From: Bacillota bacterium
GTDB taxonomy: Bacteria; Bacillota_I; Bacilli_A; RF39; UBA660
Reading direction: 5' to 3'
Assembly: GCA_015059445.1 (NCBI GenBank)
Contig: SVAK01000005.1
Coordinates: 4,757 to 68,756 of the forward strand
Length of the DNA stretch: 64,000 nt
Within the stretch, counting starts at the first letter, position 1. Each line of letters opens with the position of its first letter. Of this stretch, positions 2,188-34,354 are shown piece by piece. Made by a program: the position numbers and the translations under genes. The notes under the pieces are model-generated. The model worked only from the letters and a program-made list of their open reading frames with translations, had not been told where the DNA came from and made no database searches.

Positions 2188-2189
2188 GA

Positions 2190-2633
2190 ATGAAAGTAGT
2201 TATTCAAAGAAGTTTATATAGTAATGTAGTAATTGAGAATAAAGTCTTTAATGAAATATCCAATGGTTTAGTTATATTTTCTTGTTTTACTGAGGGAGAT
2301 ACAACAGAAGATATTAGTTACATAATAAAAAAAATTACTAATTTAAGAATTTTTGACGATGAAGATGGAGTTATGAACAAAAGTATATTAGATACTGATG
2401 GACATATATTATCAATAAGTCAATTTACATTATATGCTGATACTAAAAAAGGTAATAGGCCAAGTTATATTAAAGCATTAAATGGGCTAGAATCTATTAA
2501 ATTATATGAATTATTCAATGAAGAATTAAATAAAATAGTACCAACTGTTACAGGTATATTTGGAGCTGATATGAAAGTGAATATTACTAATGATGGCCCT
2601 GTAACGATAATAATAGATAGTAAAAATAAATAA
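2190..2633 (+). CDS. dtd: D-aminoacyl-tRNA deacylase
   Basis: 147 aa; SQFTLYAD and NDGPVT motifs typical of Dtd; translationally coupled to relA as in Firmicutes. Confidence 0.85.
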   Translation: MKVVIQRSLYSNVVIENKVFNEISNGLVIFSCFTEGDTTEDISYIIKKITNLRIFDDEDGVMNKSILDTDGHILSISQFTLYADTKKGNRPSYIKALNGLESIKLYELFNEELNKIVPTVTGIFGADMKVNITNDGPVTIIIDSKNK

Positions 2634-2644
2634 ATTTTGATAAA

Positions 2645-2676
2645 ATAATCCTACCTAAAAGTGGGATTATTTTTAT
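2645..2676 (+). terminator. rho-independent terminator after dtd
   Basis: 10-bp stem ATAATCCTAC/GTGGGATTAT (one G-U) followed by TTTTTAT. Confidence 0.5.
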
Positions 2677-2933
2677 GAAAAAAAGTTTACTCAAAAATAA
2701 AGATTTATGCGCTAAATGTGGTGAAAAATGTTTCAAAGCGAGAGGCTGTATATATTTTGTAACAGATTTTGAAAGTATGAAGTTTGATTATTTAGAAAGC
2801 ATACTAGATACTGGTAGAGTTTCTATAAAAGCTCAATTACATTTCACTTTCAATTAAATAAAATTAATAGAATTTCTTATATTATTGACAATAGTTTCTA
2901 ACTTTATTAAAATAAATTTAGGAGGATTTTAAA

Positions 2934-3821
2934 ATGGTAGTTATAAATAATTTTGATTTGGAGAGAGTGATTTTAGCTAAAAAATGTGCTGAGGCATTAG
3001 GTTTAAAAGAAATTCCATCAATTCTATATGAATTCGGTGTTAATGTTTCAGAATTACCTGAAGATACTAAGGCTAAAATCTCAGGCAGTATTCCAGAAAG
3101 TAGTTTATTAAGTATGGGGCTTGTATATAAATATAATGGAACTTTAACTTTTATTAATTCAAATGGACATACAATGGTTGTGCCGTCTTGCAATGTTATT
3201 GAAAATCTATTAAAAGAATGTGGTTATTTAATTTGTGATTACGGGAAGTCTGTACCCCCTATGGAAAATTCTGCTCAAGATTCTTATAGTTATAAGAGAG
3301 AATTAGAAAAATATAGAAAAAAATATACTTTACCACAAGAATTAGCAGAGCAAATATATAGACAAGAAAATACTGCATATTCTTCTAGTTTTAGTGATGA
3401 GTATGCGTACGATGTTTTTGATAGAAAATATTATAGAGGAGGTCTAATAGGAGCAGAAGATTCTAGAGCCATTGCTGAAGTTTCGGACTTACGAAGCAAA
3501 GTTATTAGAATTTTACTTTCTTTTCATAATGGAACTCCGGATTTGTCGCATAATGCCCTAAATGTTTTAACCATAGAAGATTATCTTTTATATGTTAAAG
3601 AACATAACATTTTATGTGATAAAATATATTATGCTGATAATGGTTTGTTTAAGGTATTTTACAGAGAACAGTTAGATGCTAGAGCAAGAAAAGAAAAGGC
3701 AGCTGCACTTGCGGCTCGGCCTACTATTTCTGGTCTTAATGCAAATGGAGATCTTACAACAGATCCCAATCAAATTGTTTCTCATGAGACCGTTATTAAT
3801 CCCGGAAACCCTAAAAGATAA
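2934..3821 (+). CDS. hypothetical protein (295 aa)
   Basis: long ORF with strong RBS AGGAGGATTTTAAAATG; no recognisable motifs. Confidence 0.5.
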   Translation: MVVINNFDLERVILAKKCAEALGLKEIPSILYEFGVNVSELPEDTKAKISGSIPESSLLSMGLVYKYNGTLTFINSNGHTMVVPSCNVIENLLKECGYLICDYGKSVPPMENSAQDSYSYKRELEKYRKKYTLPQELAEQIYRQENTAYSSSFSDEYAYDVFDRKYYRGGLIGAEDSRAIAEVSDLRSKVIRILLSFHNGTPDLSHNALNVLTIEDYLLYVKEHNILCDKIYYADNGLFKVFYREQLDARARKEKAAALAARPTISGLNANGDLTTDPNQIVSHETVINPGNPKR

Positions 3822-3974
3822 TATTTATAAAATATCACAAAATATCAAACTTCGTTTGTTAAAACGAGGTTTGATATTAGTTAAATTAATAAATATAATG
3901 CTGTTTTTAAATAAAGGAAAAATATCAATTTCTGAATAATTATTGACTAAATTTTCAATTCGTAATAAAATAAA

Positions 3975-4175
3975 GACATATAAATTTTCTATGGAAAGAA
4001 AAGTAGTTTATTAAAAAAAGTTAGCAGCGAAGACGGTTGGTGAGAAAGTCGAACGAGTTAATAGATGAAGACACTTTCATAATTAGAAACGCATAGTTAG
4101 CGATAAAATTAGAGACCTAGAAGTAAGGTGGTACCGCGATAAATTTCGCCCTTACGCTTCTAGGTCTTTTTTAAA
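3975..4175 (+). promoter_or_regulatory. T-box riboswitch leader upstream of hisS
   Basis: promoter TTGACT-17-TAAAAT at 3943-3971; T-box consensus AAGGTGGTACCGCG at 4124-4138; terminator stem GAGACCTAGAAG/CTTCTAGGTCT followed by TTTTTT ending 4172. Confidence 0.6.
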
Positions 4176-4190
4176 GAAAGAAGGAATAAA

Positions 4191-5453
4191 ATGATAACTA
4201 AACCAAAAGGAACTACAGATATTACAGGAAATGATGCACTTCTTTGGGAATATGTAAATCAAGTAGTAAGTACTATGGCTCAAACTTATAATTATGAATT
4301 TATAAGAACTCCAGTTTTTGAATCAAGTGAATTATTTCATAGAAGTGTTGGTGAAACTTCTGATATAGTTCAAAAAGAAACTTATGATTTTAAAGATAAA
4401 GGAGATAGGAATTTAACATTAAGACCAGAGGGAACTGCTGGTGTTGTAAGAAGTTATATTGAAAATAAATGTTATGCGGAGCCGGATGTAAAAAAATACT
4501 ATTATAACGAGACTATGTATCGTTATGAAAGGCCACAAACTGGAAGAATGCGTGAATTTACTCAATTTGGTGTAGAAGTGCTTGGAAGCAATGATCCCTT
4601 AGTAGATGCCGAAGTAATTAGTTTCCAATATTATATTTTAAATGCACTACATATTGAAAATTTACAAGTAAACATCAATTCTTTAGGTGATGCTGAGTCA
4701 AGACTTAACTATAAAGAAGCACTAGTTAAATATTTAGAGCCACATATCAATAATTTATGTGAAGACTGTAGAGAAAGATTTAAAACTAATCCGCTTAGAA
4801 TATTGGATTGCAAAGTTGATGCGGATAGCGAAATACTTAAGAATGCTCCTAAAACAATTGACTATTTAAATAAAGAAAGCAAGGAAAGATTCGAAACTGT
4901 TTTAAAATACTTAGACATTTTGGATGTAGACTATGAAGTTAATCCAAGAATAGTAAGAGGTCTTGACTATTATGATCATACCGTGTTTGAAATAGTATCA
5001 TTAGATAATATGGATACCAAGGCAAATGTTTTAGGCGCTGGTGGTCGTTATAATAAACTGATTAAAGAATTAGATGGCCCTGAATCTTACGGTATCGGTT
5101 GGGCTTGTGGTATGGATAGAATTATTAATATGTTAAAAGAAATCAATTTATATAAAGATGTAAAAAAACAAGTAGAATGTTATGTAATGTATGTTTCTGA
5201 AGAAGAAAAAATGTATGCATTAGAAATTACTCAAAATTTAAGATTAAATGGAGTTGTTACGGAGACAGATTGTTTAAATAAAGGATTAAAAGGGCAATTT
5301 AAACAAGCTGATAGATTAAATGCAAAATTGTTGGTTATTTTAAATAATGAAGATTTAAGTAAAGGCTTGGTAAATATCAAAGATAATGCCACAAAAGATG
5401 AAGAAAAAGTAGATTTAGATGAAGTAGTAGAACAAGTTATTGGTAGATTATAA
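4191..5453 (+). CDS. hisS: histidyl-tRNA synthetase
   Basis: 420 aa class II aaRS; motifs RPEGTAGVVR, FQFGVEVLG, GGGRY typical of HisRS. Confidence 0.9.
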   Translation: MITKPKGTTDITGNDALLWEYVNQVVSTMAQTYNYEFIRTPVFESSELFHRSVGETSDIVQKETYDFKDKGDRNLTLRPEGTAGVVRSYIENKCYAEPDVKKYYYNETMYRYERPQTGRMREFTQFGVEVLGSNDPLVDAEVISFQYYILNALHIENLQVNINSLGDAESRLNYKEALVKYLEPHINNLCEDCRERFKTNPLRILDCKVDADSEILKNAPKTIDYLNKESKERFETVLKYLDILDVDYEVNPRIVRGLDYYDHTVFEIVSLDNMDTKANVLGAGGRYNKLIKELDGPESYGIGWACGMDRIINMLKEINLYKDVKKQVECYVMYVSEEEKMYALEITQNLRLNGVVTETDCLNKGLKGQFKQADRLNAKLLVILNNEDLSKGLVNIKDNATKDEEKVDLDEVVEQVIGRL

Positions 5454-11444: not shown

Positions 11445-12695
11445 ATGAAAAAAAATATTATAAATAGTTGTATTGTATTTTTAATAATAATTGAAATTAT
11501 TAGTTTGTTGTTTGCATACAAAGCGCTAACTAGTAAAAGTGATTTTGGATATATTGAACAAAAAAATATGGAAAATGGAAAATTATTTGCATTAATGTTG
11601 GAACAACCGAATGGTTTATATAAAGAAAGTGTTAATAAAAAATGGCCTAGTACTGGATATAAGTATAATAGTAGTTTGTCGGGTTGTATGGATAAGAATG
11701 GTAATGTTGTAAATGGGGTTTTAAGTTATGATGAAAACACTAGAGTTACACGTGTAAATACAACTGAGACATTACAATGCTATTTATATTTCGATTTAAG
11801 AGGATAAGCATATGCGATATATTCTCAGGATGAAAATTCATTAACTTTTATTAGAAGCAAAATAGCGCCCGTTGAAGGTAATACGTTTAATAATAAGACT
11901 ATAACCAAGGTATTTAGTGGCTTTGAAGAAAAAACTTATGTTTCTAGTTCAGTTCCTTGGCGCAGCTATGCTAAAAGAATAAAAACGGTAGTTGTTCAAG
12001 ACGAAACAATCCCTATTAGTACTACCTATTGGTTTAATGATTTTACAACATGCACATCGTTTAATCTCAAGAAATTAAATGTTTTTTTAGTAACCAACAT
12101 GTCATATATGTTTGCTAATGCAGGATACGATGTTACGACAATTGAATTAGATTTATCCGGATGGGATACTTCTAACGTAACTAATATGTCAAATATGTTT
12201 TTTGCTACTGGAACTTATGCGACTTCATGGAATATTGGAGATTTATCTAATTGGGATACTGCAAAAGTTACAAATATGTCATATATGTTTTTAAGCGCTG
12301 GTTATGATGCCACAACATGGAACATCGGTAATATTGGTAATTGGAACACATCTAATGTTACTAATATGTCATATATGTTTTATCAAGCCGGATACGGAGC
12401 GACAACATGGAATATTGGAGATTTATCCAAATGGAACACATCTAATGCAACAGATATGTCATATATGTTTGATCAAGCTGGATATTATGCTGCAACATGG
12501 AATATTGGGGATTTATCCAAATGGAATACTTCAAAAGTCACCGATATGAAAGGTATGTTTAATCTTGTAGCAGTCAACGCTGATTCTTGGCGAACTATAA
12601 ATTTATCTAGTTGGGATGTTTCACAAGTTATTTTTTATGATAATTTTAACGTTAATTCTGCGGATAAAGTTATTGCGCCTATTTTCTCTAATTAA
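11445..12695 (+). pseudogene. DUF285-repeat surface protein interrupted by a single in-frame TAA (11805-11807)
   Basis: ORF 11445-11807 (N-terminal TM + approx 90-aa domain) and ORF ending 12695 are in the same frame; the 97 codons between the TAA and the first ATG (12099) contain no stop and no start; C-terminal part has 6-7 repeats of WNTSNVTNMSYMF..AGY.ATTWNIGDLS (DUF285/Mycoplasma lipoprotein repeat). Confidence 0.55.
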
Positions 12696-12790: not shown

Positions 12791-13228
12791 ATGATGAAAA
12801 AATTAATGTTGATAGGGCTTTCAATTACAGCAGGATTTTTATTTACATTTTTTATATTAAATAAAAAAAATATTTATGCCAAAGAAGAATATATGATTTT
12901 TGCGTTTCAAGTTGGTGCTTTTGAAAAATATGATAATGCAATTGATTTTAGTGAAAAACTTCCTTCTTCTATAATTATAAAAGAGGGAAAACTATATAAA
13001 ATATATGTAGCATTATATAATGATATAGATATAGTAAATAAAATGATTGTATATTTTGAAAATAATAATATTAATATTTACTTAAGAAGCATTAAAGTGG
13101 GGAAAGAATTTTATACTAATTTAGTAAACTATGAGCAAATAATAAATAGTTCTAAAGATGTAAATGTTTATAATCAAGTAAATCAAAGTATATTAAATTT
13201 ATATATAGAAAGTATAAATAATGATTAA
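12791..13228 (+). CDS. membrane-anchored SPOR-like domain protein
   Basis: N-terminal TM; FAFQVGAFEKYDNAIDFSEKL...GKLYKIYVALYNDIDIVNKM resembles SPOR fold signature. Confidence 0.45.
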   Translation: MMKKLMLIGLSITAGFLFTFFILNKKNIYAKEEYMIFAFQVGAFEKYDNAIDFSEKLPSSIIIKEGKLYKIYVALYNDIDIVNKMIVYFENNNINIYLRSIKVGKEFYTNLVNYEQIINSSKDVNVYNQVNQSILNLYIESINND

Positions 13229-13862
13229 ATTAATTAAGGAAAACTATTTGTTTTTGTTCTTATTTGTTTTAATTGTTTTGAAAGACCCAATTTATAAATT
13301 ATTTACATTAGAAGAAAAAGTTTATAATACTACTCAATGTCAATTTTTAGAAGATGATTATAATAAATTATTAGAATTTAGTAAAATAGATTTAATATAT
13401 GAAAGCAATTATGTTAATTCTTATATTATTTACAAAGATATTTACAATTATATGAATGAAATTACTATAAGAGGAGGAAGAGACTTAAATTTTAAGAACA
13501 ACCCTGTAATTTATGATAATACTTTGATTGGAGTTATCGACAAGGTAAATCAAAATAGTAGCATAGTTAAATTAATCACCAATAAAAATAGTAAGATATC
13601 AGTTAAAATAAATGAAGAAATTGGAATCTTAGAATATAAAAAAGGCAATTTAATAGTAAGCAATATTAGTAATTATAGTAATATTTCTATTGGAGATTCC
13701 ATCTACACATCAGGACTTGGTAACATTCATGAGAATATCTATATTGGAGAAGTGAAAAATATTGAGTTAGATAATAAAAATATTGAAAAAATAATTACTG
13801 TAAATCACAAATTAAACATTAAAAATATTGATTATATAACAGTTTTAAAGGAGAATGTATGA
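13221..13862 (+). CDS. mreC: rod shape-determining protein MreC-like
   Basis: 213 aa, N-terminal TM, C-terminal GDSIYTSGLGNIHENIYIGEV resembles MreC GD.VVTSGLGG.FP.GL.IG.V; position upstream of mreD-like and spoIVFA/B-like genes. Confidence 0.6.
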   Translation: MIKLIKENYLFLFLFVLIVLKDPIYKLFTLEEKVYNTTQCQFLEDDYNKLLEFSKIDLIYESNYVNSYIIYKDIYNYMNEITIRGGRDLNFKNNPVIYDNTLIGVIDKVNQNSSIVKLITNKNSKISVKINEEIGILEYKKGNLIVSNISNYSNISIGDSIYTSGLGNIHENIYIGEVKNIELDNKNIEKIITVNHKLNIKNIDYITVLKENV

Positions 13863-14248
13863 TTTTTTTATTGTTGTTATTAGATGTTTTAGTAAATAAT
13901 TTTACTTCTTATTCATCTTATTTTTTTATTGTATATTTGTATAATAAGTCATACAAATATTACTTATTAACGGGTTTAACCTTAGATTTTATTATATTTA
14001 ATAATTTATTCTTAAATACTATCTTATTATCAATTATTTACTTAGTTAATAAAATTTTTAAAGATTTAAATAAGAATAATTTTTATAACTATATTTTTAT
14101 TATTATATTTAATTATTTGCTATTTATTATTTTAAGTAATATATTAATGCGCAATTCAATATCGAATACTTTAATACTTTTAGGTAGCAATCTTGTTATT
14201 AATATTATGTTTTATGTTTTATGTTATAGAACTTGTAAAAGAATATAA
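13859..14248 (+). CDS. MreD-like polytopic membrane protein
   Basis: 129 aa, 4-5 hydrophobic helices, overlaps mreC stop; assignment by position only. Confidence 0.35.
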   Translation: MIFLLLLLDVLVNNFTSYSSYFFIVYLYNKSYKYYLLTGLTLDFIIFNNLFLNTILLSIIYLVNKIFKDLNKNNFYNYIFIIIFNYLLFIILSNILMRNSISNTLILLGSNLVINIMFYVLCYRTCKRI

Positions 14249-14285: not shown

Positions 14286-15245
14286 ATGAGAAAGTGTATT
14301 GAGGGTATCAAAAAAGTAATTTATGATCAAGTTAAATTAAATCGATTATGTTTAACTGGAATAAGATTCTCTGAACATCAAAAAACTTATTTTTGGACTA
14401 ACGAAAATATTGCAGCATATCTTGATTTAGTTGATTTTGAAGGAAAAGACAGCGCTTTGGCTGTACTTGCCTCTGGTGATCAAACATTTAATTTGATTAC
14501 AAAAGGCATTGCTAACATCGATACTTTTGATACTAATAAATTTACAGAGTATTTTGCTTTGGGATTTAAAAGAGCATTAATTTTAAAGTACAATTATCAA
14601 GAATTTTGTATAATTACGCAAATATTAAGAAATCCGCGCCTTACTAAAGAAGAGTTAAATGAAGTGTTCATCGGATTATTTCCATTTATGGAACTAAAAC
14701 ATCGCATATTTTGGCAACAAATTTTAGATTATAATTATCAAATTCAACAAGAATTTGGAACTAACTTGAATTTGTTAGGAATACTTTCATTAGAAAAATT
14801 ATCTAATCGTAGTATGTATAGTTTATTTTTTAATAATTACTTAAAAGATGAGGAAAGTTATGAATTTTTAAGAAGTCAATTAGGGTTAGCTAATATTTCA
14901 TTCACTTATTCTAATGCCATAGATTTACCAAGAGTTTTTTCAAAATCTTATGATTTCATTTTACTCTCTAATATATTAGATTATTTTTATAAAAGTTTAG
15001 GCTGTAATTGGGATTATGAAGAACTTCAAAAATATGAACAGCAACTAGAACCTTTATTAAATGATGATGGAGTTATATTTCTCCATTATGCCATGGCATG
15101 CTTGAAAGACTCTAAAATTTTTAGAAATAAAATTATAAATAGTTCAAAAGTAAATATTGGCGATCTAGTAAATGAGGAGTTTATTACTTTGCCTCCTTTT
15201 TGCGGTACTACTAATGGAATGATTTTAAAAAGAGTAACCAAATAG
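14286..15245 (+). CDS. uncharacterised Rossmann-like family protein, paralog 1 (possible SAM-dependent transferase, DUF3419/BtaA-like?)
   Basis: start ATG 14286 (RBS GAGGGAT); motifs YFWTNENI, LASGDQTFNL, IDTFDTN, GFKRALILKY, FWQQILDYNY, YDFILLSNILDYFYK, GMILKRV shared with three other paralogs. Confidence 0.7.
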   Translation: MRKCIEGIKKVIYDQVKLNRLCLTGIRFSEHQKTYFWTNENIAAYLDLVDFEGKDSALAVLASGDQTFNLITKGIANIDTFDTNKFTEYFALGFKRALILKYNYQEFCIITQILRNPRLTKEELNEVFIGLFPFMELKHRIFWQQILDYNYQIQQEFGTNLNLLGILSLEKLSNRSMYSLFFNNYLKDEESYEFLRSQLGLANISFTYSNAIDLPRVFSKSYDFILLSNILDYFYKSLGCNWDYEELQKYEQQLEPLLNDDGVIFLHYAMACLKDSKIFRNKIINSSKVNIGDLVNEEFITLPPFCGTTNGMILKRVTK

Positions 15246-15257
15246 AAGGGATTAATT

Positions 15258-16226
15258 GTGACACAAATTATAAAAATAGCTAAAGAAATAATCAAAAAAC
15301 AAGTTGATAATCATTATGTTGGTCATGGTGATGAATTTTTGCGTGCTCATAAAGTGTATCCATGGACCAATGAAGATATAAATACTTATTTGAAACTAGC
15401 CGATTTTAACGATAAGGATAGCGCTTTATCTGTACTTGCTAGCGGCGATCAGCCTTTTAATTTAGTAACTAATGGTATATTAAATATAGATACATTTGAT
15501 ATAAATCCTCTTTCGGAATATTATTCGTTAGGATTAAAACGAGCTTTAATTTTAAAATATGATTTTGATACTTTTAATGGTATATTAAATATATTGTATA
15601 ATCCTTGGACAAGCATTGATGTTATAACTTCACTAATAAAATCATTATTTCCTTATATGGAAAGAAAGCATAAAAACTTTTGGGAAACTATCCTGGATTA
15701 TAATTATAAATATCAAAAAAGGAATGGAACATTACTAAATATAATTTTATTGTTAACACTTCAAACCAAACAAGAACAAAATGAACTAAATAATTATTTA
15801 ATGTTGCGACAAAATTATGAATTATTAAGAAGCAGATTAGCTTCGTCAAATATATCTTTTAGGTGCACCAATGCTCTAAATTTAGGAAATACATTTAAAA
15901 GAAAATATGATCTTATTTTGTTATCTAATATATTAGATTATTTTTATAAATATTTAGGTCCTCATTGGAATTACAATAAACTTCAAGAATATGAAAAAAG
16001 TTTAGAAAATCTTGGTGAATCTGATGCTATAATTTTTTTACATTACATTTTACATTATTTAAAAAATAACAAACAATATAGAATTAGTATTATAGATAAT
16101 TGTGCTATAAATCCTGCAGATTTAACGGATGAACAATTAATCACTTTGCCATCAGGAACTTCCGTTAATCACGGAATGATTCTAAAGAGGGTAGATAATT
16201 GTCAAAAAGAAGATTTTATGTTATAA
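15258..16226 (+). CDS. uncharacterised Rossmann-like family protein, paralog 2
   Basis: GTG start with RBS GAAGGGA; same motif set (YPWTNEDI, LASGDQPFNL, IDTFDINP, YDLILLSNILDYFYK, GMILKRV). Confidence 0.7.
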   Translation: MTQIIKIAKEIIKKQVDNHYVGHGDEFLRAHKVYPWTNEDINTYLKLADFNDKDSALSVLASGDQPFNLVTNGILNIDTFDINPLSEYYSLGLKRALILKYDFDTFNGILNILYNPWTSIDVITSLIKSLFPYMERKHKNFWETILDYNYKYQKRNGTLLNIILLLTLQTKQEQNELNNYLMLRQNYELLRSRLASSNISFRCTNALNLGNTFKRKYDLILLSNILDYFYKYLGPHWNYNKLQEYEKSLENLGESDAIIFLHYILHYLKNNKQYRISIIDNCAINPADLTDEQLITLPSGTSVNHGMILKRVDNCQKEDFML

Positions 16227-16250
16227 TACATCATCGATTGAAGGGGTAGT

Positions 16251-17198
16251 ATGGAGCATTATATTAAAGGTGCTAGACATTTAATGGCCACTCAAATGAA
16301 TTGTAATGCCATTAGAAACTGCGAAAAATTATTTACCGAATTTTCAAAAGCTTATTATTGGACTAATGAGAATATACGAGCTTATTTGGAATTAATAGAT
16401 TTTGAGGGAAAAACTAATGCATTAACTGTTGCAGCTAGTGGCGATCAAGCCTTTAACTTGATAACTAATGGAATCATAAATATTGATACTTTTGATACAA
16501 ATGCTTTATCAGAATTTATTGCATTTGGTTTTAAACGCGCCATGATCCTAAAATATTCTTATAATGATTTTATAAATGTGATGATTTTATTGAGATCTGA
16601 TAATTTATCACAAGAACACATAAATTCTATCATTAGTGATTTGTTGCCATATATGGAATCAAGGCATCAAGTTTTTTGGCGTACAGTTCTAAACTATAAT
16701 AAACAAGCCCAAAACTATTATTGTACAAATTTAAATTTAATTAGAATGCTAACTTTAGATAATAAATTCATTCCACAATATAATGACTATTTACTGGATG
16801 AATTACATTATGAAACACTAAGAAAAAGATTAGGTAATGCTAATATTACCTTTAAATGTGTTAATGCAAAAGATTTAGGAAGGGAATTTACTAGTCAGTA
16901 TGATTTAATATTGTTATCAAATATTTTAGATTATATGTTTAATGATTGGGGACGTCATTGGGATTATCATAAATTAGCAGAATACGAAAGAGAACTAGGA
17001 ATCATTTTAAAACCTGATGGAGTAATTTTCTTAAATTATATTTTTACATATGTTGTTGGCCAAAATGATCCTAATATGCTTTTTCCACTTTCTTCAGTTA
17101 CCAAAGAAAATTTAACAGACGAAGAGATTCATAAAATCCCTAAACTTGATAATTCAAATGAAGTTGATGGAATGATTTTGAAAAGGATACAAAAATAA
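16251..17198 (+). CDS. uncharacterised Rossmann-like family protein, paralog 3
   Basis: RBS AAGGGG; same motif set (YYWTNENI, AASGDQAFNL, IDTFDTNA, YDLILLSNILDYMFN, GMILKRI). Confidence 0.7.
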   Translation: MEHYIKGARHLMATQMNCNAIRNCEKLFTEFSKAYYWTNENIRAYLELIDFEGKTNALTVAASGDQAFNLITNGIINIDTFDTNALSEFIAFGFKRAMILKYSYNDFINVMILLRSDNLSQEHINSIISDLLPYMESRHQVFWRTVLNYNKQAQNYYCTNLNLIRMLTLDNKFIPQYNDYLLDELHYETLRKRLGNANITFKCVNAKDLGREFTSQYDLILLSNILDYMFNDWGRHWDYHKLAEYERELGIILKPDGVIFLNYIFTYVVGQNDPNMLFPLSSVTKENLTDEEIHKIPKLDNSNEVDGMILKRIQK

Positions 17199-17218
17199 TC
17201 GAATAACTACCAAAGTAA

Positions 17219-17505
17219 ACAAAGACACTTTTGTTTATGACTGTCTTAGCAGAATATTTTGCCTTAGGAACTAAAAGGCTGCAATATAAAAATACAAATA
17301 TACGGATTTTCTGCATATTATGAAAAATAATATGTTCTGATAGTACAAGTCTTGATGAATTTTCTGATATGGTTTAATCTCTTCATTGTTGGACGACTCT
17401 CGTGTTCACTTTGAAGATTTACGAAAAGAAGAGATAATCACATTATCAAGAAGCTCATTTGAACAACAAACTATAATACTTAGAATGTTTAGTAATAAAG
17501 TGTAA
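17219..17505 (+). pseudogene. decayed remnant of a fifth paralog of the same family
   Basis: 17249-17290 translates AEYFALGTKRLQYK (cf. TEYFALGFKRALILKY of paralog 1); 17380-17505 translates ...DLRKEEIITLSRSSFEQQTIILRMFSNKV* (cf. C-terminal DLTDEQLITLPS...GMILKRV); interrupted by stops. Confidence 0.5.
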
Positions 17506-17545
17506 ATAAATTAATACAAGAGGAATATACTTTAGTGGTGAACAT

Positions 17546-18157
17546 ATGAACATTGATGACTACACAAAAGTAACGCATAAAAGATTTAGCATTGATGATA
17601 GGGAAAGTGAAGAAAAGAAGATTAAATATTTAAAAAATTTAATAACTAGAACATTACTAAGTATAATTTTAGTATTAAGCGTAAGTATATTTATAAAAAT
17701 AGATAGCAATAATGTTTTATTAATTGATGAATATGTATTTCAAGATTCATTAGAATTTACTAAAATAAATAATTGGTATCAAGATAATGTAGGCAAGATT
17801 ATTCCTAATTTAAATACTAATACTACTCTAGTTTTTAACAGCGATGAATTAAAAAATAGTGTCTACTCTGATTATTTGGATGGCGTAAAAATTGAGGTGG
17901 ATAAAAGTAGTCCAATTTCTTTATTAAGTGGTGGAATAGTAGTCTTTATCGGTGAAAAAGAAGGTTATGGAAACACTTTAATTTTACAAGGAAATGATGG
18001 CATTGATTACTGGTATGGAAATATTACTAACCTAAATGTCAATTTATATGATTATTTAGAAAAAGATACGTTAATAGGTGAAAGTGAAAATAATTATTTA
18101 TATTTAGTCTTACAAAAAGATGGTAATTATATAGGTTATGAAGAATATCTTAAATAA
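17546..18157 (+). CDS. SpoIVFA-like membrane protein with degenerate LytM (M23) domain
   Basis: 203 aa, one TM (LLSIILVLSVSIFIKI), C-terminal GIVVFIGEKEGYGNTLILQGNDGIDYWYGN...IGES resembles M23 fold but lacks HxxxD/HxH catalytic His; directly upstream of and overlapping an M50 protease gene, as spoIVFA-spoIVFB. Confidence 0.5.
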   Translation: MNIDDYTKVTHKRFSIDDRESEEKKIKYLKNLITRTLLSIILVLSVSIFIKIDSNNVLLIDEYVFQDSLEFTKINNWYQDNVGKIIPNLNTNTTLVFNSDELKNSVYSDYLDGVKIEVDKSSPISLLSGGIVVFIGEKEGYGNTLILQGNDGIDYWYGNITNLNVNLYDYLEKDTLIGESENNYLYLVLQKDGNYIGYEEYLK

Positions 18158-18905
18158 GTTTAAAATTAATAACTATACATATCTTTTTCTAATTATTTGT
18201 GCGCTATGTGGTTATATTAAAAATATAACTGTTATTTTTGTAATTTGTCTAATTCACGAATTAGGGCATGTTTTTTTTATTAATTTATTTAAATATAAAA
18301 TTATTAGTATCGAATTGCTGCCTTTTGGAGGATTTACAACCATCGACAAAAGAATAAATACAAATATAAACAAAGATATTATTATTGCTTTTGGTGGGAT
18401 TTTCTTTCAATTGATTTTAATGTTAGTAGTATACTTATTTAAAAATGATTTCAATGTTATCACTTATAACATAATTATTAAATATAATATTATTTTGCTG
18501 GTTTTTAATTTTATACCAATAATACCCTTAGATGGCAATAATATATTGCACTTAATATTAGAAAAAATATTTTCTTACCATTTATCCTATTATATAAATT
18601 TTATTATCTCAATAATTAGTTTAATTATATTTGTAGTTATCAATTATATATATAGTTTTGATAATTACTTTATTATTTCTTTTTTAATATATAAAAGTGT
18701 GATGTATATTAAAAATTATAAATATATTAAAAAAAGGTTTTTATTAGAAAGATATTTATATGATTTTAAGTATAGAAAAATAGAAAATAATACCCAAAAT
18801 ATTAACTCATTAAAAAAAGAAGTTTTACATTATTTTAAAGAAAACAATAAATACATTAAAGAACAAGAAAAAATCAAAAAATTATTTTCACAGAATAATA
18901 TATGA
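18138..18905 (+). CDS. M50 family site-2 protease (SpoIVFB-like)
   Basis: 255 aa polytopic; HExxH in TM (LIHELGHVFF) and NFIPIIPLDGNNILH (LDG motif) diagnostic of S2P/M50. Confidence 0.7.
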   Translation: MKNILNKFKINNYTYLFLIICALCGYIKNITVIFVICLIHELGHVFFINLFKYKIISIELLPFGGFTTIDKRINTNINKDIIIAFGGIFFQLILMLVVYLFKNDFNVITYNIIIKYNIILLVFNFIPIIPLDGNNILHLILEKIFSYHLSYYINFIISIISLIIFVVINYIYSFDNYFIISFLIYKSVMYIKNYKYIKKRFLLERYLYDFKYRKIENNTQNINSLKKEVLHYFKENNKYIKEQEKIKKLFSQNNI

Positions 18906-18959
18906 TTGCAAAAATTTAAAACTTAAGATATGATATAAATCACAAAAAGGATGATACAT

Positions 18960-19925
18960 ATGTATAAAACTATTTTTCAAGCCAAAAGAATTATTAAACA
19001 ACAGGTTAGAAGTAATATGATAGATATTCCTAATAGCTTTTCAAACTATCAGAAAGGATATTTATTTACAAATGAAAACATAAATGGATATTTAAATATA
19101 GCAAATATTAAAGAACATTCAAGCGCTTTAACAGTTACTAGTAGCGGAGATCATGCTTTTAACCTAGTCGGTCAAGGAATTTTAGATATTGATACATTTG
19201 ATATAAATTATTTGTCAGAATATATAGCATTAGGTTTAAAAAGAGCAATGATTTTAAAATATAATTATTACGAGTTTCTTGCAATAACATTAAAATTTAT
19301 GAACAATATCTCATTAGAAGAACTAACAGATATAATTAACGATCTTTTACCTTATATGGAACGCAAACATCGCATCTTTTGGACTAAAATTCTTAATTAT
19401 AATTATAAATTACAAAAACGAAGCAAAAACCCTTTAAATCTAATTCTCTTATTATGTTGCGGAATACCTTCTCCAATGATACATATTTACAATAATGCGT
19501 ATTTGCTAGATGAATATTGTTATCAACAATTAAGAAGAAATTTAGGTAATGCTAATATCACTTTTACTCAAACTGATGCAATAATGTTACCAGAAGTTTT
19601 TAAGGGAAAAGAGTATGATTTGATACTTTTATCCAATATTCTCGATTATTTTTCCCAACATTGGGATGAAGAATGGAGTTACAACCGTCTAGAGGAATAT
19701 TTAGCTTCTTTAGAAGGTGTCGCTAAAGAAGAGGCAATTATATTTATAAAATATATTTTTGACTATAAAATTAGAGGTATAGAGGCAACTAAATGTTTTA
19801 GAGGATCTAACGTGTCTAGAAGTGATATAACGGATGAATTCACTATAATTTTTGATAATGTTTACACAGAATATGAAAATGCTATGATTTTTAGAAGAGT
19901 AAGAAAACAAGAAATTGACAAATGA
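18960..19925 (+). CDS. uncharacterised Rossmann-like family protein, paralog 4
   Basis: ATG 18960 (RBS AAAAAGG, 9-nt spacing); motifs YLFTNENI, TSSGDHAFNL, IDTFDINY, GLKRAMILKY, YDLILLSNILDYF. Confidence 0.7.
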   Translation: MYKTIFQAKRIIKQQVRSNMIDIPNSFSNYQKGYLFTNENINGYLNIANIKEHSSALTVTSSGDHAFNLVGQGILDIDTFDINYLSEYIALGLKRAMILKYNYYEFLAITLKFMNNISLEELTDIINDLLPYMERKHRIFWTKILNYNYKLQKRSKNPLNLILLLCCGIPSPMIHIYNNAYLLDEYCYQQLRRNLGNANITFTQTDAIMLPEVFKGKEYDLILLSNILDYFSQHWDEEWSYNRLEEYLASLEGVAKEEAIIFIKYIFDYKIRGIEATKCFRGSNVSRSDITDEFTIIFDNVYTEYENAMIFRRVRKQEIDK

Positions 19926-20020
19926 GCTAATTTTTGATAAAATTAAGACGTTTTAAGTCATTTCGTAAAAAACCGCACTAAAGAGGTTATAAGTTTCTAA
20001 AAACACCTTAAGGGCGCGAC

Positions 20021-20350
20021 TTGAATCAAAAATATATAAGGAGGTATGAAATGAAAGCTATATTCGTTACAGGTGGAAAACAATATTATGTTGCTGAAGG
20101 TGATGTAATCTATGTTGAAAAATTGAATGTTGAAGCAGGTGAAACTGTAAAATTTGATGAAGTTTTATTTGTTGATGGTGTTGCTGGAAATCCAGTAGTA
20201 GCTGGAGCAACAGTTGAATGTAAAGTAGAAAAACACGGAAAGAACAAAAAAGTTGTTGTTTTCAAATATAGACCTAAAAAGAAATATCGTAAAAAACAAG
20301 GACATAGACAACCATATACTAAACTTGTTGTTACAAAAATTAGTAAATAA
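20021..20350 (+). CDS. rplU: 50S ribosomal protein L21
   Basis: [25 protein letters not shown], 109 aa. Confidence 0.95.
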
Positions 20351-20352
20351 TT

Positions 20353-20646
20353 ATGATTAAAGTAAAATACAGTAATAAATTCATTAAAATTAGTGGTCAT
20401 GCTGATTTTAATGATTATGGAAAAGATATTGTTTGTGCTTCAGCATCAAGTATTGTCTATACGACTATTAATGGTATTTTAAATATTAATATAAATGCTA
20501 TTAAATATACTGATGAAAAAGAATTAGTTATTGAAATACTAAGTAATGATGAAATAACTAATAAACTTATTGGCAGTATGCTTGATTTACTAAAAGAATT
20601 AGAAGCGCAATATCCAAAGAATATAAAAATTAGTAAAGGAGAATGA
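20353..20646 (+). CDS. prp: ribosomal-processing cysteine protease Prp
   Basis: 97 aa between rplU and rpmA; GHADFN...DIVCASASS (His/Cys dyad). Confidence 0.8.
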
Positions 20647-20933
20647 ACATGTTATTTATAAAATTAAATATACAAAGATTTGCCCATGTTAAAGCTCAAG
20701 GTTCTACAAAAAATGGCCGTGACTCTAGAGGGCGCAGATTAGGCGCTAAATTATCTGATGGTCAAGTTTGTAGTGCTGGTGCTATAATATATCGTCAAAG
20801 AGGAACTAAGATTTATCCAGGTACTAATGTAGGGATGGGAAAAGACCATACTTTATTTAGTAAAATAGATGGTGTAGTAAAATACGAAAGATTAGGCAGA
20901 GATAAAAAGAAAGTAAGCGTTTACGAAGCATAG
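20643..20933 (+). CDS. rpmA: 50S ribosomal protein L27 (with Prp-cleaved N-terminal extension)
   Basis: N-terminal extension [13 protein letters not shown] then [15 protein letters not shown]. Confidence 0.95.
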
Positions 20934-20996
20934 TAAATGCTTTTTTTATTATAAAAAAACACGATAGTAATTCGTGTAATTTAATATAATTATAAC

Positions 20997-21632: not shown

Positions 21633-21773
21633 TTTTTCACTTCCTAATATTTATTTTATCATGTTTAATAATATTAGTAAATTAATTTGTTTTTACTTAA
21701 TTTTATTCCAAAGTTATATTTATTAATTTAGATGAGTATGATATAATAAATTAGATAATAGGAGTTAAGTGTG

Positions 21774-23057
21774 ATGAAAAAATATATATTTGGATTTATA
21801 TGTGGCATTTTATTATTAATGCCATCTATAATTTCTGCCAAGAAGGTAACGTGTAGTAATGGCGACTATAATGCTACAATTGAAATTAACAAAGAAAAAA
21901 TAAACATAAATGAATTGGCAACGATTACCATAGATAGCGAATCAACCTATGAAATAGAATATAAAATTGCGGATAAGGATATTGCAAATATTAATGAAGG
22001 CGTAATTACAGCTTTAAAAGAAGGTAATACTACAATTAAAACAGAAATAACGTTTGCCGAAAATAGTAGTTGTATTGTCAATTTGCCAATCGAAGTTGTT
22101 TCAAATGATTCTTTATTAAAATCTTTGAACTTAGAAGAATTGGATATTAGTTCAGTATTTAAATCAGATAAATATGAATATGAAATCAATTTGCCTTATA
22201 ATTTTGAAAAAATTAACATTATTGCAGAGGCAAATAACTCTAATGCAAAAATAACTGGAGATGGAAGAAGATACTTAAACGAGGGAGTTAATGAATATGA
22301 AATAGTAGTTACTGCTACCGATGGATCAACTAGTACCTATAAAATTATAATTAATAGAGAAGAAGCAAATGAAGATGTAACTTTAAAAAGTTTGATAGTT
22401 GAAGGTTATGTATTAAGCCCAAAATTTGATAAGGAAACTTATAGATATACATTAAACATAGATAAAGCAATAGAAGAAATAACAATTCATGCAGAAACAG
22501 CTTATGAATTTGCAAAAATTAGAGGAACAGGAACATTTTCTGTAGCAACAGGCCAAAATACTTATTATATTATTGTTACTGCCGAGAATGGCAACGAAGG
22601 ACAATATGAAGTAGTTATCAATAAGAGTAATGGCACTAGTAGACTGGAAAGCTTAGAAATTGCAGGTATAAAACTAGATAGTGAATTCTCAAGCGATAAA
22701 TATATTTATTATATAGATATTAATAGTAATATAAAAACTTTAGACATTAAAGCTAAAGCTGTAGATAATGATCAAATAGAAATTATAGGTAATGAAAATC
22801 TCGATTATGGAAAAAATGAAATAATTATAAGAGTAACTGGTGAAGATAAATCTTCAACTACTTATAAAATCATTGCTAATAAATTAAATGCTGAGGAAGA
22901 GCAAAAAATTGAAAAAAATGATAAGTTACTCAAGATTTTATTAATCACATTTATAGTATCAATTATTATAATGATAACTGTTATAGGTATATTTTTAAAA
23001 AGAAATTATAAAAGAGAAGTTAATATAAATAAAAAGAGGAAGAATAAAAAGAAATAA
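21774..23057 (+). CDS. secreted, C-terminally TM-anchored protein with four cadherin-like beta-sandwich repeats
   Basis: signal peptide; approx 95-aa repeats with LKSL..L...F....Y.Y.I........I.......A.I.G.G........G.N...I.VTA.DGS.STYKI.I; C-terminal hydrophobic anchor plus KRRKNKKK. Confidence 0.6.
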   Translation: MKKYIFGFICGILLLMPSIISAKKVTCSNGDYNATIEINKEKININELATITIDSESTYEIEYKIADKDIANINEGVITALKEGNTTIKTEITFAENSSCIVNLPIEVVSNDSLLKSLNLEELDISSVFKSDKYEYEINLPYNFEKINIIAEANNSNAKITGDGRRYLNEGVNEYEIVVTATDGSTSTYKIIINREEANEDVTLKSLIVEGYVLSPKFDKETYRYTLNIDKAIEEITIHAETAYEFAKIRGTGTFSVATGQNTYYIIVTAENGNEGQYEVVINKSNGTSRLESLEIAGIKLDSEFSSDKYIYYIDINSNIKTLDIKAKAVDNDQIEIIGNENLDYGKNEIIIRVTGEDKSSTTYKIIANKLNAEEEQKIEKNDKLLKILLITFIVSIIIMITVIGIFLKRNYKREVNINKKRKNKKK

Positions 23058-23068
23058 TAGGTGATAGC

Positions 23069-24817
23069 ATGTTTGGTAAGATACTTTATATTAGCGATAA
23101 TATAGCACATGTAGAAAATAAAATGAATAGGGATGTTGCAGCAGATTTAATGAATATTCACGTTATATTTGAGGCAAAAGAGCAGCGAATTTTAGGAGAA
23201 GTTGTTGAGCTTAACGATGAGGTTGTAAAAATTAAATTTTTAGGAGAGTATCAAGAAAAAAAGTATTTAAATGGTGTTCTTAGAAAACCTTTACTTAACT
23301 CTGTTATTAGAATTATTAATGGAGAAGAGTTAATGGAATTAGTGGGGTCTTACACAGATAAGTCATTTATATTAGGAAATTCTGCTATATACAAGAATTT
23401 TAAAGTATGTCCTAGTATTAATTCGCTATTTTCTAACCACTTAGCCATATTTGGTAATAGTGGTTCTGGTAAATCGTGTGGTGTGGCTAGAATTATTCAA
23501 AATATTTTTAGCAATAATTTAGCGAACCCAGTAAATGCCAATCTATTTATTTTTGATGCTTATGGAGAATATAAAAATGCTTTTAAAAGTTTAAATAATA
23601 TAAATCCAAATTATCAATATAAATTTATTACTACTAATCCGGTTGATAAAGATGATTATTTATTAGATATACCCATCCATTTACTTAATTTAGATGACTG
23701 GGCGCTTCTATTGCAGGCAAGCAGTCATTCGCAATTACCTATTATTGAAAATACAATTAAATTAGCTAAGATTTTTTCGCAAGAAAATGAAGAAGCAAAA
23801 AAATTAAAAAATCATTTGATTGCTAAGGCTTTATTATCGATTTTATTCAGCAGCGAAACAACTGCGAATAAAAAAAATGAAATATTCACCGTAATAGAAG
23901 TATGTAATACTCCGGAATTTAATTTTGATAGTGTTATTCCAGGAATCGGATATACAAGAAGTTTTAGTGAATGTTTTGAAATAGATTCTCATGGTAATTT
24001 TGGTGAAAGTGTTTTAATAACTGAATATATATTAAAACACATTCTAGATGACAATACTAACTTTATAGAACCAGCAAATGCGTATTATACTTTAAACGAT
24101 TTTTCAAAGGCTTTAGAATTCACTTTAATTAGCGAAGGATTCCAACATAATGAAAATTTATATAGCGATTCAATTATATTAAAAGTAAGACTTAATACTA
24201 TAATAACTAGCAAAATCAGTAAATATTTTACTGGTAAAGAATATATATCTTTACATAATTATATAACTAAGTTAGTAATAAAAAATGATAAAAAGGCTCA
24301 AATTATAAATATTAATTTAGAAGATATAGATGATGTATATGCAAAAGTTATAGTAAAGGTTTTTGCTAGACTTATGTTTGAATATTCTAAAGGATTAGAA
24401 AAAAGAGCTAGTATTCCGTTCCATTTATTCTTAGAAGAAGCTCATAGATATATTCAAAAAGATAATGATACTTATTTGATTGGTTATAATATATTTGATC
24501 GTATTGCTAAAGAAGGACGCAAATATGGGGTTATATTAGATATTATCAGTCAAAGACCTGTGGAAATATCTGATACTGTTATCGCACAATGTTCTAATTT
24601 CTTAATCTTTAAAATGACTCATCCTTTAGATATCAAATATATTGAAGAAATGCTTCCAAATATATCTAGTGATATAGTAGAAAAACAAAAAATATTACAA
24701 CCAGGAACTTGTGTAGGCTTCGGTGGCGCTTTTAAAATACCTATGATAGTAAAATTAGAAATGCCAAATCCAATGCCATATTCATCAAACTGTGATGTAT
24801 CTAGTTGTTGGAAATAA
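23069..24817 (+). CDS. HerA/FtsK-superfamily ATPase (DUF87-like)
   Basis: 582 aa; Walker A LAIFGNSGSGKSCGV, Walker B FHLFLEEAHRYI, GRKYGVILDIISQRPVEISDTVIAQCSNFLIFKM typical of HerA-like ATPases. Confidence 0.65.
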   Translation: MFGKILYISDNIAHVENKMNRDVAADLMNIHVIFEAKEQRILGEVVELNDEVVKIKFLGEYQEKKYLNGVLRKPLLNSVIRIINGEELMELVGSYTDKSFILGNSAIYKNFKVCPSINSLFSNHLAIFGNSGSGKSCGVARIIQNIFSNNLANPVNANLFIFDAYGEYKNAFKSLNNINPNYQYKFITTNPVDKDDYLLDIPIHLLNLDDWALLLQASSHSQLPIIENTIKLAKIFSQENEEAKKLKNHLIAKALLSILFSSETTANKKNEIFTVIEVCNTPEFNFDSVIPGIGYTRSFSECFEIDSHGNFGESVLITEYILKHILDDNTNFIEPANAYYTLNDFSKALEFTLISEGFQHNENLYSDSIILKVRLNTIITSKISKYFTGKEYISLHNYITKLVIKNDKKAQIININLEDIDDVYAKVIVKVFARLMFEYSKGLEKRASIPFHLFLEEAHRYIQKDNDTYLIGYNIFDRIAKEGRKYGVILDIISQRPVEISDTVIAQCSNFLIFKMTHPLDIKYIEEMLPNISSDIVEKQKILQPGTCVGFGGAFKIPMIVKLEMPNPMPYSSNCDVSSCWK

Positions 24818-28515: not shown

Positions 28516-29403
28516 ATGGAAAATGAAATAATATTAGACAATAATATCGAAACCTATTTAAGTTATTTAAGATACGAAAGAAAACTTTCTAAAAACACTT
28601 ATGAATCGTATCGTTATAATTTAATAAAAATATGTAATTTTTTTGGTCATAGCAAGTTGCTAAAACTAAATGAAGAGGATATTCGTTTATTTTTATATAA
28701 TTCAAAGGAAAGCAGCAAAACTAATGCTCATTATTTATCAGTATTAAAATCTTTTTATGATTATATGCTTGATTTAGAAAAAATTAATATTAATCCATGT
28801 GAAAATATCAAATCTCCCAAATTAGAAAAAAAATTACCTAAATTTTTAACGGAAGAAGAAGTTGATAAACTTCTTAATATTAGATGTAATAAACCAATTG
28901 ATTATCGTAATAAAGCAATGCTAGAGTTATTGTATGCTACAGGAATGCGAATCTCGGAACTCTTAAATTTACAACTATCAAACATTCATGAAGAAGAAGC
29001 GGTTGTTAAAGTAATGGGTAAGGGTAGCAAAGAAAGAGTTATTCCTATGAGTGATATTACCATTAAATATTTAAATTTATATTTGAAAGAATATCGTAAT
29101 TACATTTTAAAAACAAAACAATCAGAATATGTATTTATAAACTACAATGGCAGTAGAATGTCTCGACAAGGCTTTTTTAAAATATTAAAAAAACTTTGCG
29201 ATGAAACAGGTATTAAAAAAGAAATATCGCCGCATATTTTGAGGCATTCATTTGCCACCCATTTATTAAACAATGGAGCAGATTTAAGAATTATTCAAGA
29301 GTTATTAGGACACGAAAATATTACTACCACAGAAATTTATTCTCATATATCAAATGAAAAAATCAAAGAAGATTACTCAAAGCATCCTCATTATAAAGCA
29401 TAA
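28516..29403 (+). CDS. tyrosine site-specific recombinase XerC/XerD family (sole Xer in window)
   Basis: 295 aa; catalytic R (GMRISEL), K (KGSKER), HILRHSFAT, LGHENITTTEIYSH. Confidence 0.85.
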   Translation: MENEIILDNNIETYLSYLRYERKLSKNTYESYRYNLIKICNFFGHSKLLKLNEEDIRLFLYNSKESSKTNAHYLSVLKSFYDYMLDLEKININPCENIKSPKLEKKLPKFLTEEEVDKLLNIRCNKPIDYRNKAMLELLYATGMRISELLNLQLSNIHEEEAVVKVMGKGSKERVIPMSDITIKYLNLYLKEYRNYILKTKQSEYVFINYNGSRMSRQGFFKILKKLCDETGIKKEISPHILRHSFATHLLNNGADLRIIQELLGHENITTTEIYSHISNEKIKEDYSKHPHYKA

Positions 29404-33271: not shown

Positions 33272-33330
33272 CACAATTAACAAATCTTGTCCTTTTGTTT
33301 TTGTGGTCTTAGGACAAGAAAGGATAAAAA

Positions 33331-34095: not shown

Positions 34096-34141
34096 CTGAT
34101 TAGTTAATATAGATAATAGGACAAGTAGAAAGGAAGTTGTC

Positions 34142-34348: not shown

Positions 34349-34354
34349 TCGGAG

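Follow-up and report, generated by a model that had tools for sequence, protein, structure and literature searches.

Organization of the array

Four same-strand paralogs at the mreCD-rplU locus of an uncultured gut bacterium code for proteins that match DUF3419 (PF11899), the family of BtaA, and the reading that we favor on balance is that they form a battery of soluble SAM-dependent alkyltransferases, transcribed together and diversified in the acceptors they use, within a compact, lineage-restricted DUF3419/BtaA branch. The genes lie in a 64-kb window, the whole stretch of DNA that was analyzed, and were first recognized in an initial annotation made without database searches. All four ORFs are intact on the + strand, with 42-50% protein identity and 90+ invariant columns (Table 1). 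The proposed start sites are backed by ribosome-binding sites, with GAGGG 7 nt upstream of the paralog 1 ATG at 14286 and AAGGATGA ahead of the paralog 4 ATG at 18960, and database gene calls agree; paralog 1 is identical to a database protein (P0008). None of the four proteins has a membrane segment, their maximal 19-residue hydropathy being 0.8-1.7 versus 2.3-2.6 for the membrane neighbors, and the N-terminal ~30 residues vary across the copies. The motifs listed in the initial annotation mostly hold, although paralog 4 has YLFTNENI and AMIFRRV, and paralog 3 has GMILKRI.

Table 1. Genes and gene remnants at the locus, with positions in the window
Feature	Coordinates	Strand	Evidence and remarks
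mreC	13221..13862	+	Pfam MreC, 90.5 bits; upstream neighbor in the same terminator-free block
mreD-like membrane protein	13859..14248	+	Named from position (after mreC in relatives) and hydrophobicity (KD19 2.52); zero matches in Pfam search
Paralog 1	14286..15245	+	319 aa; compact DUF3419/BtaA-like SAM-dependent transferase (predicted); PF11899, 30.1 bits; core motifs all intact
Paralog 2	15258..16226	+	322 aa; GTG start; PF11899, 39.1 bits
Paralog 3	16251..17198	+	315 aa; PF11899, 38.1 bits; core motifs intact; groups with L003_5 of a relative
Decayed fifth copy	17218..17484	+	Frame-shifted pseudogene with stop codons and internal deletion; family HMM and tblastn
M23 peptidase-domain protein, SpoIVFA-like by synteny	17546..18157	+	Pfam Peptidase_M23, 41.8 bits
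M50 site-2 protease, SpoIVFB-like by synteny	18138..18905	+	Pfam Peptidase_M50, 60.1 bits
Paralog 4	18960..19925	+	321 aa; PF11899, 38.2 bits; separated from paralogs 1-3 by the M23/M50 pair
rplU-prp-rpmA	20051..20933	+	Precomputed Pfam L21p, Peptidase_Prp and L27; end of terminator-free block

The suspected decayed fifth copy is real, with frame-shifted, stop-containing pieces matching the family HMM in two + frames. Segment 17218-17386 matches family-profile positions 77-132 and segment 17380-17484 matches positions 278-314, each at 16-18 bits; the remaining frames of the region score ~0 bits, and three of the paralogs give weak collinear tblastn matches. The remnant is therefore a copy that has lost a large internal part.

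No terminator-like sites were seen on the + strand between 11385 and 20915, the first hairpin after 11385 lying at 20915-20942, and gene spacing within arrays is short or overlapping. Because no terminator interrupts this block, the array appears, from a simple pattern scan, to be co-transcribed with mreCD, the M23/M50 pair, and rplU-rpmA. Promoter-like sites were not above chance in a scan of this AT-rich locus, and Rfam gave no leader or riboswitch there.

Relationship to DUF3419 and BtaA

The proposed resemblance to DUF3419/BtaA has become a measured match, with all four proteins scoring 30-39 bits against PF11899 (gathering score 28.2) and 77 of 85 family members matching it (best E 1.4e-13). 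Generic methyltransferase models are far weaker, at 1e-4 or worse, compared with 1e-9 to 1e-13 for DUF3419. The PF11899 match is significant mainly over profile positions 8-118 of 385, which counts against our preferred reading. We therefore do not transfer BtaA chemistry confidently to these proteins, given also a sequence identity to BtaA of ~13% and an hhalign probability of ~30%. NCBIfam searches gave only sub-threshold ovoA_Cterm matches, on the strand 3-4 segment.

For the hhalign comparison, the canonical DUF3419 profile comprised eight genuine proteins, one of them a BtaA from a btaA-btaB operon; the S. meliloti Ak57 btaA is seemingly frameshifted, and the R. leguminosarum gene was used instead. 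The two profiles align over 293 collinear columns (E 6e-4, probability 29%), with family positions 14-327 on BtaA positions 7-398 and every motif block paired; the family profile aligns weakly to a single BtaA sequence (E 0.19), and the eight-sequence profile improved this. The pairs, given as window family and BtaA, are Y..TNENI and YPQIWEDP, ASGD[QH] and GSGGCN, IDTFDxN and IDVVDLNP, LGLKRA and LxLKxAA, NYL..E.Y..LR and P.YL..ENY..IR, and YDxILLSNIxDY and DRYILLDAQDWM. The canonical invariants E50, G74, and D92 pair with family invariants E39, G63, and D81, and in both groups a helical cap interrupts the Rossmann core between strands 2 and 3. In contrast, the window family has Asp in the strand-1 loop where BtaA has Gly (ASGD[QH] versus GSGGC), and the invariant BtaA D335 after strand 4 pairs with the family invariant N224, a conservative change.

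The four proteins are not BtaA orthologs, as identity is ~13%, ~90 cap residues are missing, and there is no btaB partner. They are ~320 aa, compared with ~415 aa for BtaA, and the family as a whole (305-335 aa) does not have the ~400-aa BtaA architecture, the ~90 missing residues being a BtaA insert in the alignment. Hosts also differ: the canonical DUF3419 proteins that we sampled come from rhizobia, a Bacteroidota species, and Brevibacillus, with algae in the literature, whereas the window family is found in gut Bacilli, as 1-24 tandem paralogs.

Fold and conserved core

The class I SAM-binding fold proposed in the initial annotation is borne out by a confident AlphaFold model (pLDDT 94.8), which has a class I SAM-dependent Rossmann-like alpha/beta fold with a helical cap. 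Residues S62-G63-D64 and D81, invariant in 85 sequences, fall where predicted strands 55-59 and 76-81 end, providing two class I hallmarks, a loop with glycine following strand 1 and an acidic residue closing strand 2. The predicted cofactor core comprises an NE motif before strand 1, the S-G-D loop, the acidic residue of IDTFDxN ending strand 2, the LGxKRA helix, and L-S-N-I-x-D-Y after strand 4. All four window copies keep these core motifs and vary in the N-terminal helix, parts of the cap, and the C-terminal sheet. No solved structure matches the whole architecture of core and cap. Neither the family profile, nor BtaA, nor the canonical DUF3419 profile drew a meaningful match from PDB sequences, so DUF3419 is without a sequence-detectable solved structure.

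These features suggest four catalytically competent class I transferases, in which a common cofactor-binding Rossmann core would be combined with a differing N-terminal helix, cap parts, and C-terminal sheet. Each copy would use SAM to alkylate an O or N nucleophile of its own particular acceptor, which may be a small molecule, a lipid, or an envelope or spore component, and the array would thus be a co-expressed enzyme battery with diversified specificity. The group moved would most likely be 3-amino-3-carboxypropyl, as in BtaA, or otherwise methyl. More tentatively, SAM-dependent 3-amino-3-carboxypropyl transfer could have its first large radiation in this family, each copy decorating a different acceptor; we include aminopropyl transfer as an alternative because an Asp is invariant in the cofactor loop.

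Distribution and evolution of the family

Clustering at 50% identity gives ~2,800 clusters for the family, which occurs only in uncultured anaerobic gut Bacilli; a scan of viral contigs (IMG/VR) found no relatives. It is thus lineage-specific, but it is not always at this locus. Copy number in related bacteria ranges from 1 to 24, with a single copy the commonest state in the clade. The same position between mreD and the M23 gene is occupied by 1-5 copies in at least 13 genomes of related uncultured gut Bacilli, and the number at this slot ranges from 0 to 5. Other relatives carry a single gene beside ylbD/ylbE or obg, or a member beside a radical-SAM gene, and in RGIG3081, 24 divergent copies, all intact ORFs, are inserted between gap and pgk. 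The array is therefore routine in the clade, which lowers the novelty of this particular one, as the initial annotation had said that it would. We found no recurring functional neighbor across the related loci. The only methyltransferase gene near family loci, in the window and ~60 related loci, is trmB.

The claim that the family is actively turning over holds over long timescales but not recent ones, because the paralogs are old and have recognizable orthologs in other genomes, and both array and remnant are identical to the window in two near-identical contigs from other metagenome samples (L001 and L002). L003_1 is an ortholog of paralog 1 (57% identical), and paralog 4 has an ortholog in L008 at the same post-M50 position (48% identity). 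The window copies show neither long near-identical DNA repeats nor gene-conversion tracts, their coding similarity being only 60-77%; the family has probably been amplified through old tandem duplications.

The window and L002 have only two differences in 21 kb, so that comparison says nothing on selection, which we measured between RGIG3081 and RGIG1752. Array orthologs there have dN/dS of 0.12-0.26 versus 0.03-0.04 for flanking genes; the copies are under purifying selection, yet they are evolving faster than every neighboring gene. Some array members have dS far below that of the flanks, which suggests exchange.

Alternative functions

That the genes code for ordinary SAM-dependent methyltransferases, such as methylases with which a herbivore-gut bacterium would act on small molecules or xenobiotics, with the DUF3419 link a matter of ancestry and not of chemistry, is a genuine possibility, if not one that we would expect. 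Structural neighbors are overwhelmingly methyltransferases, which weakens our preferred reading, and small-molecule class I enzymes (NNMT, TehB, INMT, TmtA, PMT) resemble the window family in their Rossmann core, in the acidic residue that closes strand 2, and in the 'xxNAxxL...YDxIhh' pattern of strands 3-4. However, whole-protein TM is at most 0.39 and the cap between strands 2 and 3 sets the window family apart; DUF3419 outscores the other profiles by a wide margin; and the N-terminal NE motif and LGxKRA helix are DUF3419-specific, being common to BtaA and not to standard methyltransferases. Aminopropyltransferases also rank unusually high among the structural neighbors for so small a class, although the window proteins have neither a Pfam Spermine_synth match nor the GGGDG and D-x-x-D-P signatures of spermidine/spermine synthases (PF01564). 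We think it improbable that the proteins are true BtaA equivalents, making diacylglyceryl-homoserine-type phosphorus-free membrane lipids from diacylglycerol. BtaA is the only characterized DUF3419 member, the alignment to it is collinear, and BtaA is likewise soluble and lacks a membrane segment; but no btaB-type N-methyltransferase adjoins the genes in the window or ~60 related loci, the missing cap and low identity set them apart, and 4-24 divergent paralogs per genome fit poorly with a single lipid head-group reaction. The btaA and btaB genes are adjacent in Rhizobium, Sinorhizobium, and Chondrinema.

Tandem non-identical paralogs, copy-number variation, pseudogene remnants, faster evolution than the neighbors, and the low dS suggesting exchange would all suit strings of resistance or immunity genes, each diverged copy neutralizing a different toxin or antibiotic. 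The organizational analogue is in Firmicutes, where strings of non-identical esaG immunity genes lie downstream of T7SS toxins, as described in PMC9484751, and these too are same-strand tandem arrays of diverged paralogs, with varying copy number and remnants. We nonetheless regard this as very unlikely: there is no adjacent toxin, secretion, or bacteriocin gene, the arrays sit within housekeeping operons, PADLOC gave zero defense matches, the family is missing from viral contigs, the single-copy state prevails in the clade, and the invariant, catalytic-type core favors catalysis over binding alone. Least credible of all is that the genes replace MinCD, or control the division site or sporulation septum. 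In B. subtilis, minCD lie between mreD and spoIVFA/B, and the array's place matches this, as the initial annotation pointed out; at least 13 genomes conserve the position, the window has no min genes, as claimed, and a MinD-type deviant Walker A motif is found nowhere in its 64 kb. The correspondence is nevertheless positional only, since in L012 mreD abuts the M23 gene directly, with neither min genes nor a family member there, and other relatives have the genes at unrelated loci. The proteins have a SAM-dependent transferase fold, unrelated to the MinD ATPase or MinC, and we found no evidence for a Min-like role; we rejected Min replacement on fold and variable genomic position.

Significance

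Few enzymes transfer the aminocarboxypropyl arm of SAM, and predicting them is difficult (PMC11869996); BtaA, the sole characterized DUF3419 protein, is without a solved structure. The branch described here is compact, confidently modeled, and highly diversified, with thousands of natural variants, and therefore offers a tractable entry to DUF3419 chemistry and to the basis of acceptor specificity. That core operons (mreCD-rplU, gap-pgk) harbor dozens of co-oriented paralogs under constraint points to an unrecognized, apparently important capacity for small-molecule or envelope modification. Were the family an aminocarboxypropyl or aminopropyl transferase radiation, uncultured gut Bacilli would be a large reservoir of rare group-transfer chemistry; were its members ordinary methyltransferases, the finding would shrink to a lineage-specific gene-family expansion. 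The hosts are small-genome uncultured gut Bacilli related to Mycoplasmatales.

Membership in DUF3419 and relation to BtaA

The initial annotation had pointed to a likeness to DUF3419/BtaA proteins, and this proved sound: all four paralogs pass the Pfam PF11899 threshold (30 to 39 bits versus 28.2), and DUF3419 is matched by 77 of the 85 aligned family members, with generic methyltransferase models weaker by orders of magnitude. Membership in DUF3419 is already known in an automated sense, and there is no functional name among the 120 matches listed. BtaA, which catalyzes SAM-dependent 3-amino-3-carboxypropyl transfer in betaine-lipid synthesis, has few known counterparts with that chemistry (PMC11869996, PMC10491745). 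For comparison we used genuine DUF3419 genes from annotated records, with Rhizobium leguminosarum and Chondrinema supplying btaA-btaB operons. The profile-profile alignment of the family with this set runs collinearly for 293 columns (E 6e-4, probability ~30%), and every motif block is paired: Y..TNENI in the family with YPQIWEDP in BtaA, ASGD[QH] with GSGGCN, IDTFDxN with IDVVDLNP, LGLKRA with LxLKxAA, NYL..E.Y..LR with P.YL..ENY..IR, and YDxILLSNIxDY with DRYILLDAQDWM. The family invariants E39, G63, and D81 align with E50, G74, and D92, which are invariant in canonical DUF3419, and invariant N224 is aligned to the BtaA invariant D335. Identity to BtaA is ~13%, and BtaA has ~90 more residues in its helical insert.

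Two observations concern canonical DUF3419 genes. In locus L062 (S. meliloti Ak57, CP090106.1) btaA is apparently frameshifted, being an unannotated 246-aa ORF with tblastn matches in two pieces; the record, though labelled pSymB, measures 3.7 Mb and resembles a chromosome given the wrong label. A divergent canonical-length DUF3419 paralog in Rhizobium sp. plasmid pMK-2 (L070, positions 1680-5158) adjoins a 'CoF synthetase' gene and an MBL-fold hydrolase gene, not btaB, a context which hints that Proteobacteria too hold DUF3419 members outside betaine-lipid synthesis.

The window locus

Four intact forward-strand ORFs had been described, and an ORF check bears them out; their start codons are backed by ribosome-binding sites and by independent database gene calls. 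The four proteins share 42 to 50% pairwise identity with more than 90 invariant columns, and none has a membrane segment, in agreement with their description as soluble. The decayed fifth copy is genuine and sits in the 347-bp gap 3′ of paralog 3, where collinear pieces in two forward frames correspond to profile positions 77-132 and 278-314 (16 to 18 bits each) and the remaining frames score ~0 bits against the family profile; its middle third is gone, and stops and frameshifts are present. Among the neighbors, MreC, the M23 peptidase-domain protein, and the M50 site-2 protease are confirmed by Pfam; the ORF named mreD has no match in Pfam and is assigned by position and hydrophobicity alone. 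Downstream of the array region lies rplU-prp-rpmA. A JGI metagenome contig from the same organism differs from the window by one mismatch in 20,960 bases, and an NCBI 'Firmicutes bacterium' MAG likewise matches.

Features of the window (forward-strand coordinates)
Feature	Position	Strand	Description
DUF285-repeat ORF	12099-12695		198 aa, Mycoplasma-type repeats W[ND]TSNVTNMSxMF; Pfam DUF285, 149 bits
Paralog 1	14286-15245	+	intact ORF
Paralog 2	15258-16226	+	intact ORF
Paralog 3	16251-17198	+	intact ORF
Decayed fifth copy	17218-17484	+	frame-shifted pseudogene
Paralog 4	18960-19925	+	intact ORF
Sigma-70-like site	19915-19943		strong; TTGACA-17-TAAAAT with TG
rplU upstream region	19926-20050		
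Cadherin-like-domain protein	21771-23057		N-terminal hydrophobic segment, C-terminal membrane anchor
DUF87/HerA-like ATPase	23069-24817		follows the cadherin-like-domain gene
Tyrosine recombinase	28516-29403		XerC/D type
Run of small ORFs	33300-38450	+	includes 34533-35216, 35689-37212, and 37631-38446

A scan of the window revealed no forward-strand terminator-like sites between 11385 and 20915. The sigma-70-like site belongs to the rplU upstream region, which has no match to the Rfam L21-leader at the gathering threshold.

Distribution and genomic contexts

An exhaustive profile search returned 2,844 clusters (50% identity) at E <= 1e-3, 311 of them at E <= 1e-30. Members were found only in MAGs of uncultured gut Bacilli, sampled from goat, sheep, rabbit, chicken, and human sources, and none on viral contigs. 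Record labels, including 'Mycoplasma sp. CAG:776', 'Tenericutes', 'Erysipelotrichaceae', and Candidatus Caccenecus, suggest that the hosts may belong to the fast-evolving orders related to Mycoplasmatales (PMC10868615).

We mapped all copies in 61 loci to define context classes. In the arrangement mreC-mreD-[family]n-M23-M50-(family)-rplU, n is one in nine genomes, two in L022 and L008, three in L015 and the window, four in L023, and five in L003; in L012 the M23 gene abuts mreD with nothing in between. Single copies also lie in ylbD-ylbE-family-spoVB-like (several loci), in proS-secG-family-obg (L006 and L028), and after a radical-SAM gene (L074), and large arrays of 6 to ~19 and of 24 copies occur in L054, L048, L047, and the MAG RGIG3081. 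As to whether the family is lineage-specific and always at this locus, it was found only in uncultured gut Bacilli, and in relatives it also occupies ylbD/ylbE, obg, radical-SAM, and gap-pgk sites. The initial annotation had also named recurrence in relatives as a check on novelty, and since the mapped loci show arrays across the clade, the window array is routine, a modest instance of a clade-wide phenomenon. The papers found to mention DUF3419, like the further literature searches, yielded nothing on the compact subfamily, its restriction to uncultured gut Bacilli, or tandem amplification to 24 copies.

Age and constraint of the copies

Judged by sequence comparison, the duplications are old, with orthologs recognizable across genomes: paralog 1 is 57% identical to L003_1, paralog 4 is 48% identical to the post-M50 copy of L008, and paralog 3 is orthologous to L003_5. 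Neighboring genes in the same genome pairs are 64 to 97% identical, and the family orthologs are far more diverged than every one of them.

The largest array, in RGIG3081 (contig JAFSEY010000011.1, loci L050 and L046), has 24 intact same-strand copies spanning 22.3 kb, with gap on one side and pgk-tpiA on the other. Downstream is a gene judged Spo0A-like by eye only. Pairwise identities of the copies are 27 to 62%, with a median of 36%. Compared with the MAG RGIG1752 (L047), the other of the two species with giant arrays, array orthologs have dN/dS values of 0.12 to 0.26 versus 0.03 to 0.04 for flanking genes, indicating real but relaxed constraint on the family proteins. About 9 of the 24 copies lack a reciprocal ortholog, and many array orthologs have dS of 0.07 to 0.45 versus 0.9 to 1.4 for flanking genes, which could reflect recombination or recent exchange of array segments, or binning artefacts and chimeric bins. 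Pseudogene fragments are present in L047 and the window.

Fold and putative activity

In the family fold, a ~115-residue helical cap separates strand 2 from strand 3, and the cap pocket is lined by N224, D227, and Y228. Foldseek matches are limited to the Rossmann core of NNMT, TehB, INMT, and OvoA (TM <= 0.39), so no solved structure was found with the whole architecture, and PDB sequence searches from the family or canonical DUF3419 detected no entry. Variable residues are concentrated at positions 1-30, 101-130, 151-180, and 231-322, with 31-100 and 217-228 near-fixed. Aminopropyltransferases, whose SpeE motifs we checked on solved sequences, have the Asp of GGGDG where the family has the invariant Asp of its S-G-D loop, and both have polar or acidic residues after strand 4; as the register agrees only to about one residue, this amounts to a likeness rather than a test.

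A conserved cofactor-type core within an enzyme fold, ORFs that are intact and under purifying selection, and close packing on one strand lead us to lean modestly toward a model of co-expressed SAM-dependent alkyltransferases with copy-specific acceptors. Each copy would be active, the variable cap and C-terminal sheet would pick a different acceptor per copy, and the array would be expressed along with the envelope, sporulation, and ribosomal genes around it. As to the group transferred within this model, we weigh two options roughly evenly. Homology to BtaA, the DUF3419-specific N-terminal motif common to the family and BtaA, and the high rank of aminopropyltransferases argue for the propylamine arm (aminocarboxypropyl, or aminopropyl should the loop Asp keep the carboxylate out), whereas the bulk of structural neighbors and the replacement of Asp by Asn after strand 4 argue for methyl.

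The homology to BtaA could also be read as true BtaA function, which is unlikely because no btaB adjoins the family in the window or in ~60 related loci, the cap is truncated, and paralogs are many. A string of immunity genes is possible but unsupported, there being no toxin neighbor and no match in PADLOC. Given the fold and a genomic position that varies among relatives, a Min-like role can effectively be dismissed.

Other features of the window

The DUF285-repeat ORF lacks an evident signal peptide and could represent part of a larger surface protein. A second DUF87 gene, besides that following the cadherin-like-domain gene, is located outside the window on a contig of the same organism. 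In the run of small ORFs, one product is an assembly ATPase of Zot type (Pfam Zot, 22.4 bits; threshold 20.3), another a rolling-circle Rep (REP_ORF2-G2P, 58.5 bits), and a 507-aa ORF has no match in Pfam. The run resembles an integrated element of filamentous-phage or plectrovirus type and is positioned at the cumulative GC skew peak, where gene orientation flips from forward to reverse, probably the replication terminus, and the nearby XerC/D-type recombinase suggests integration at a dif-like site.
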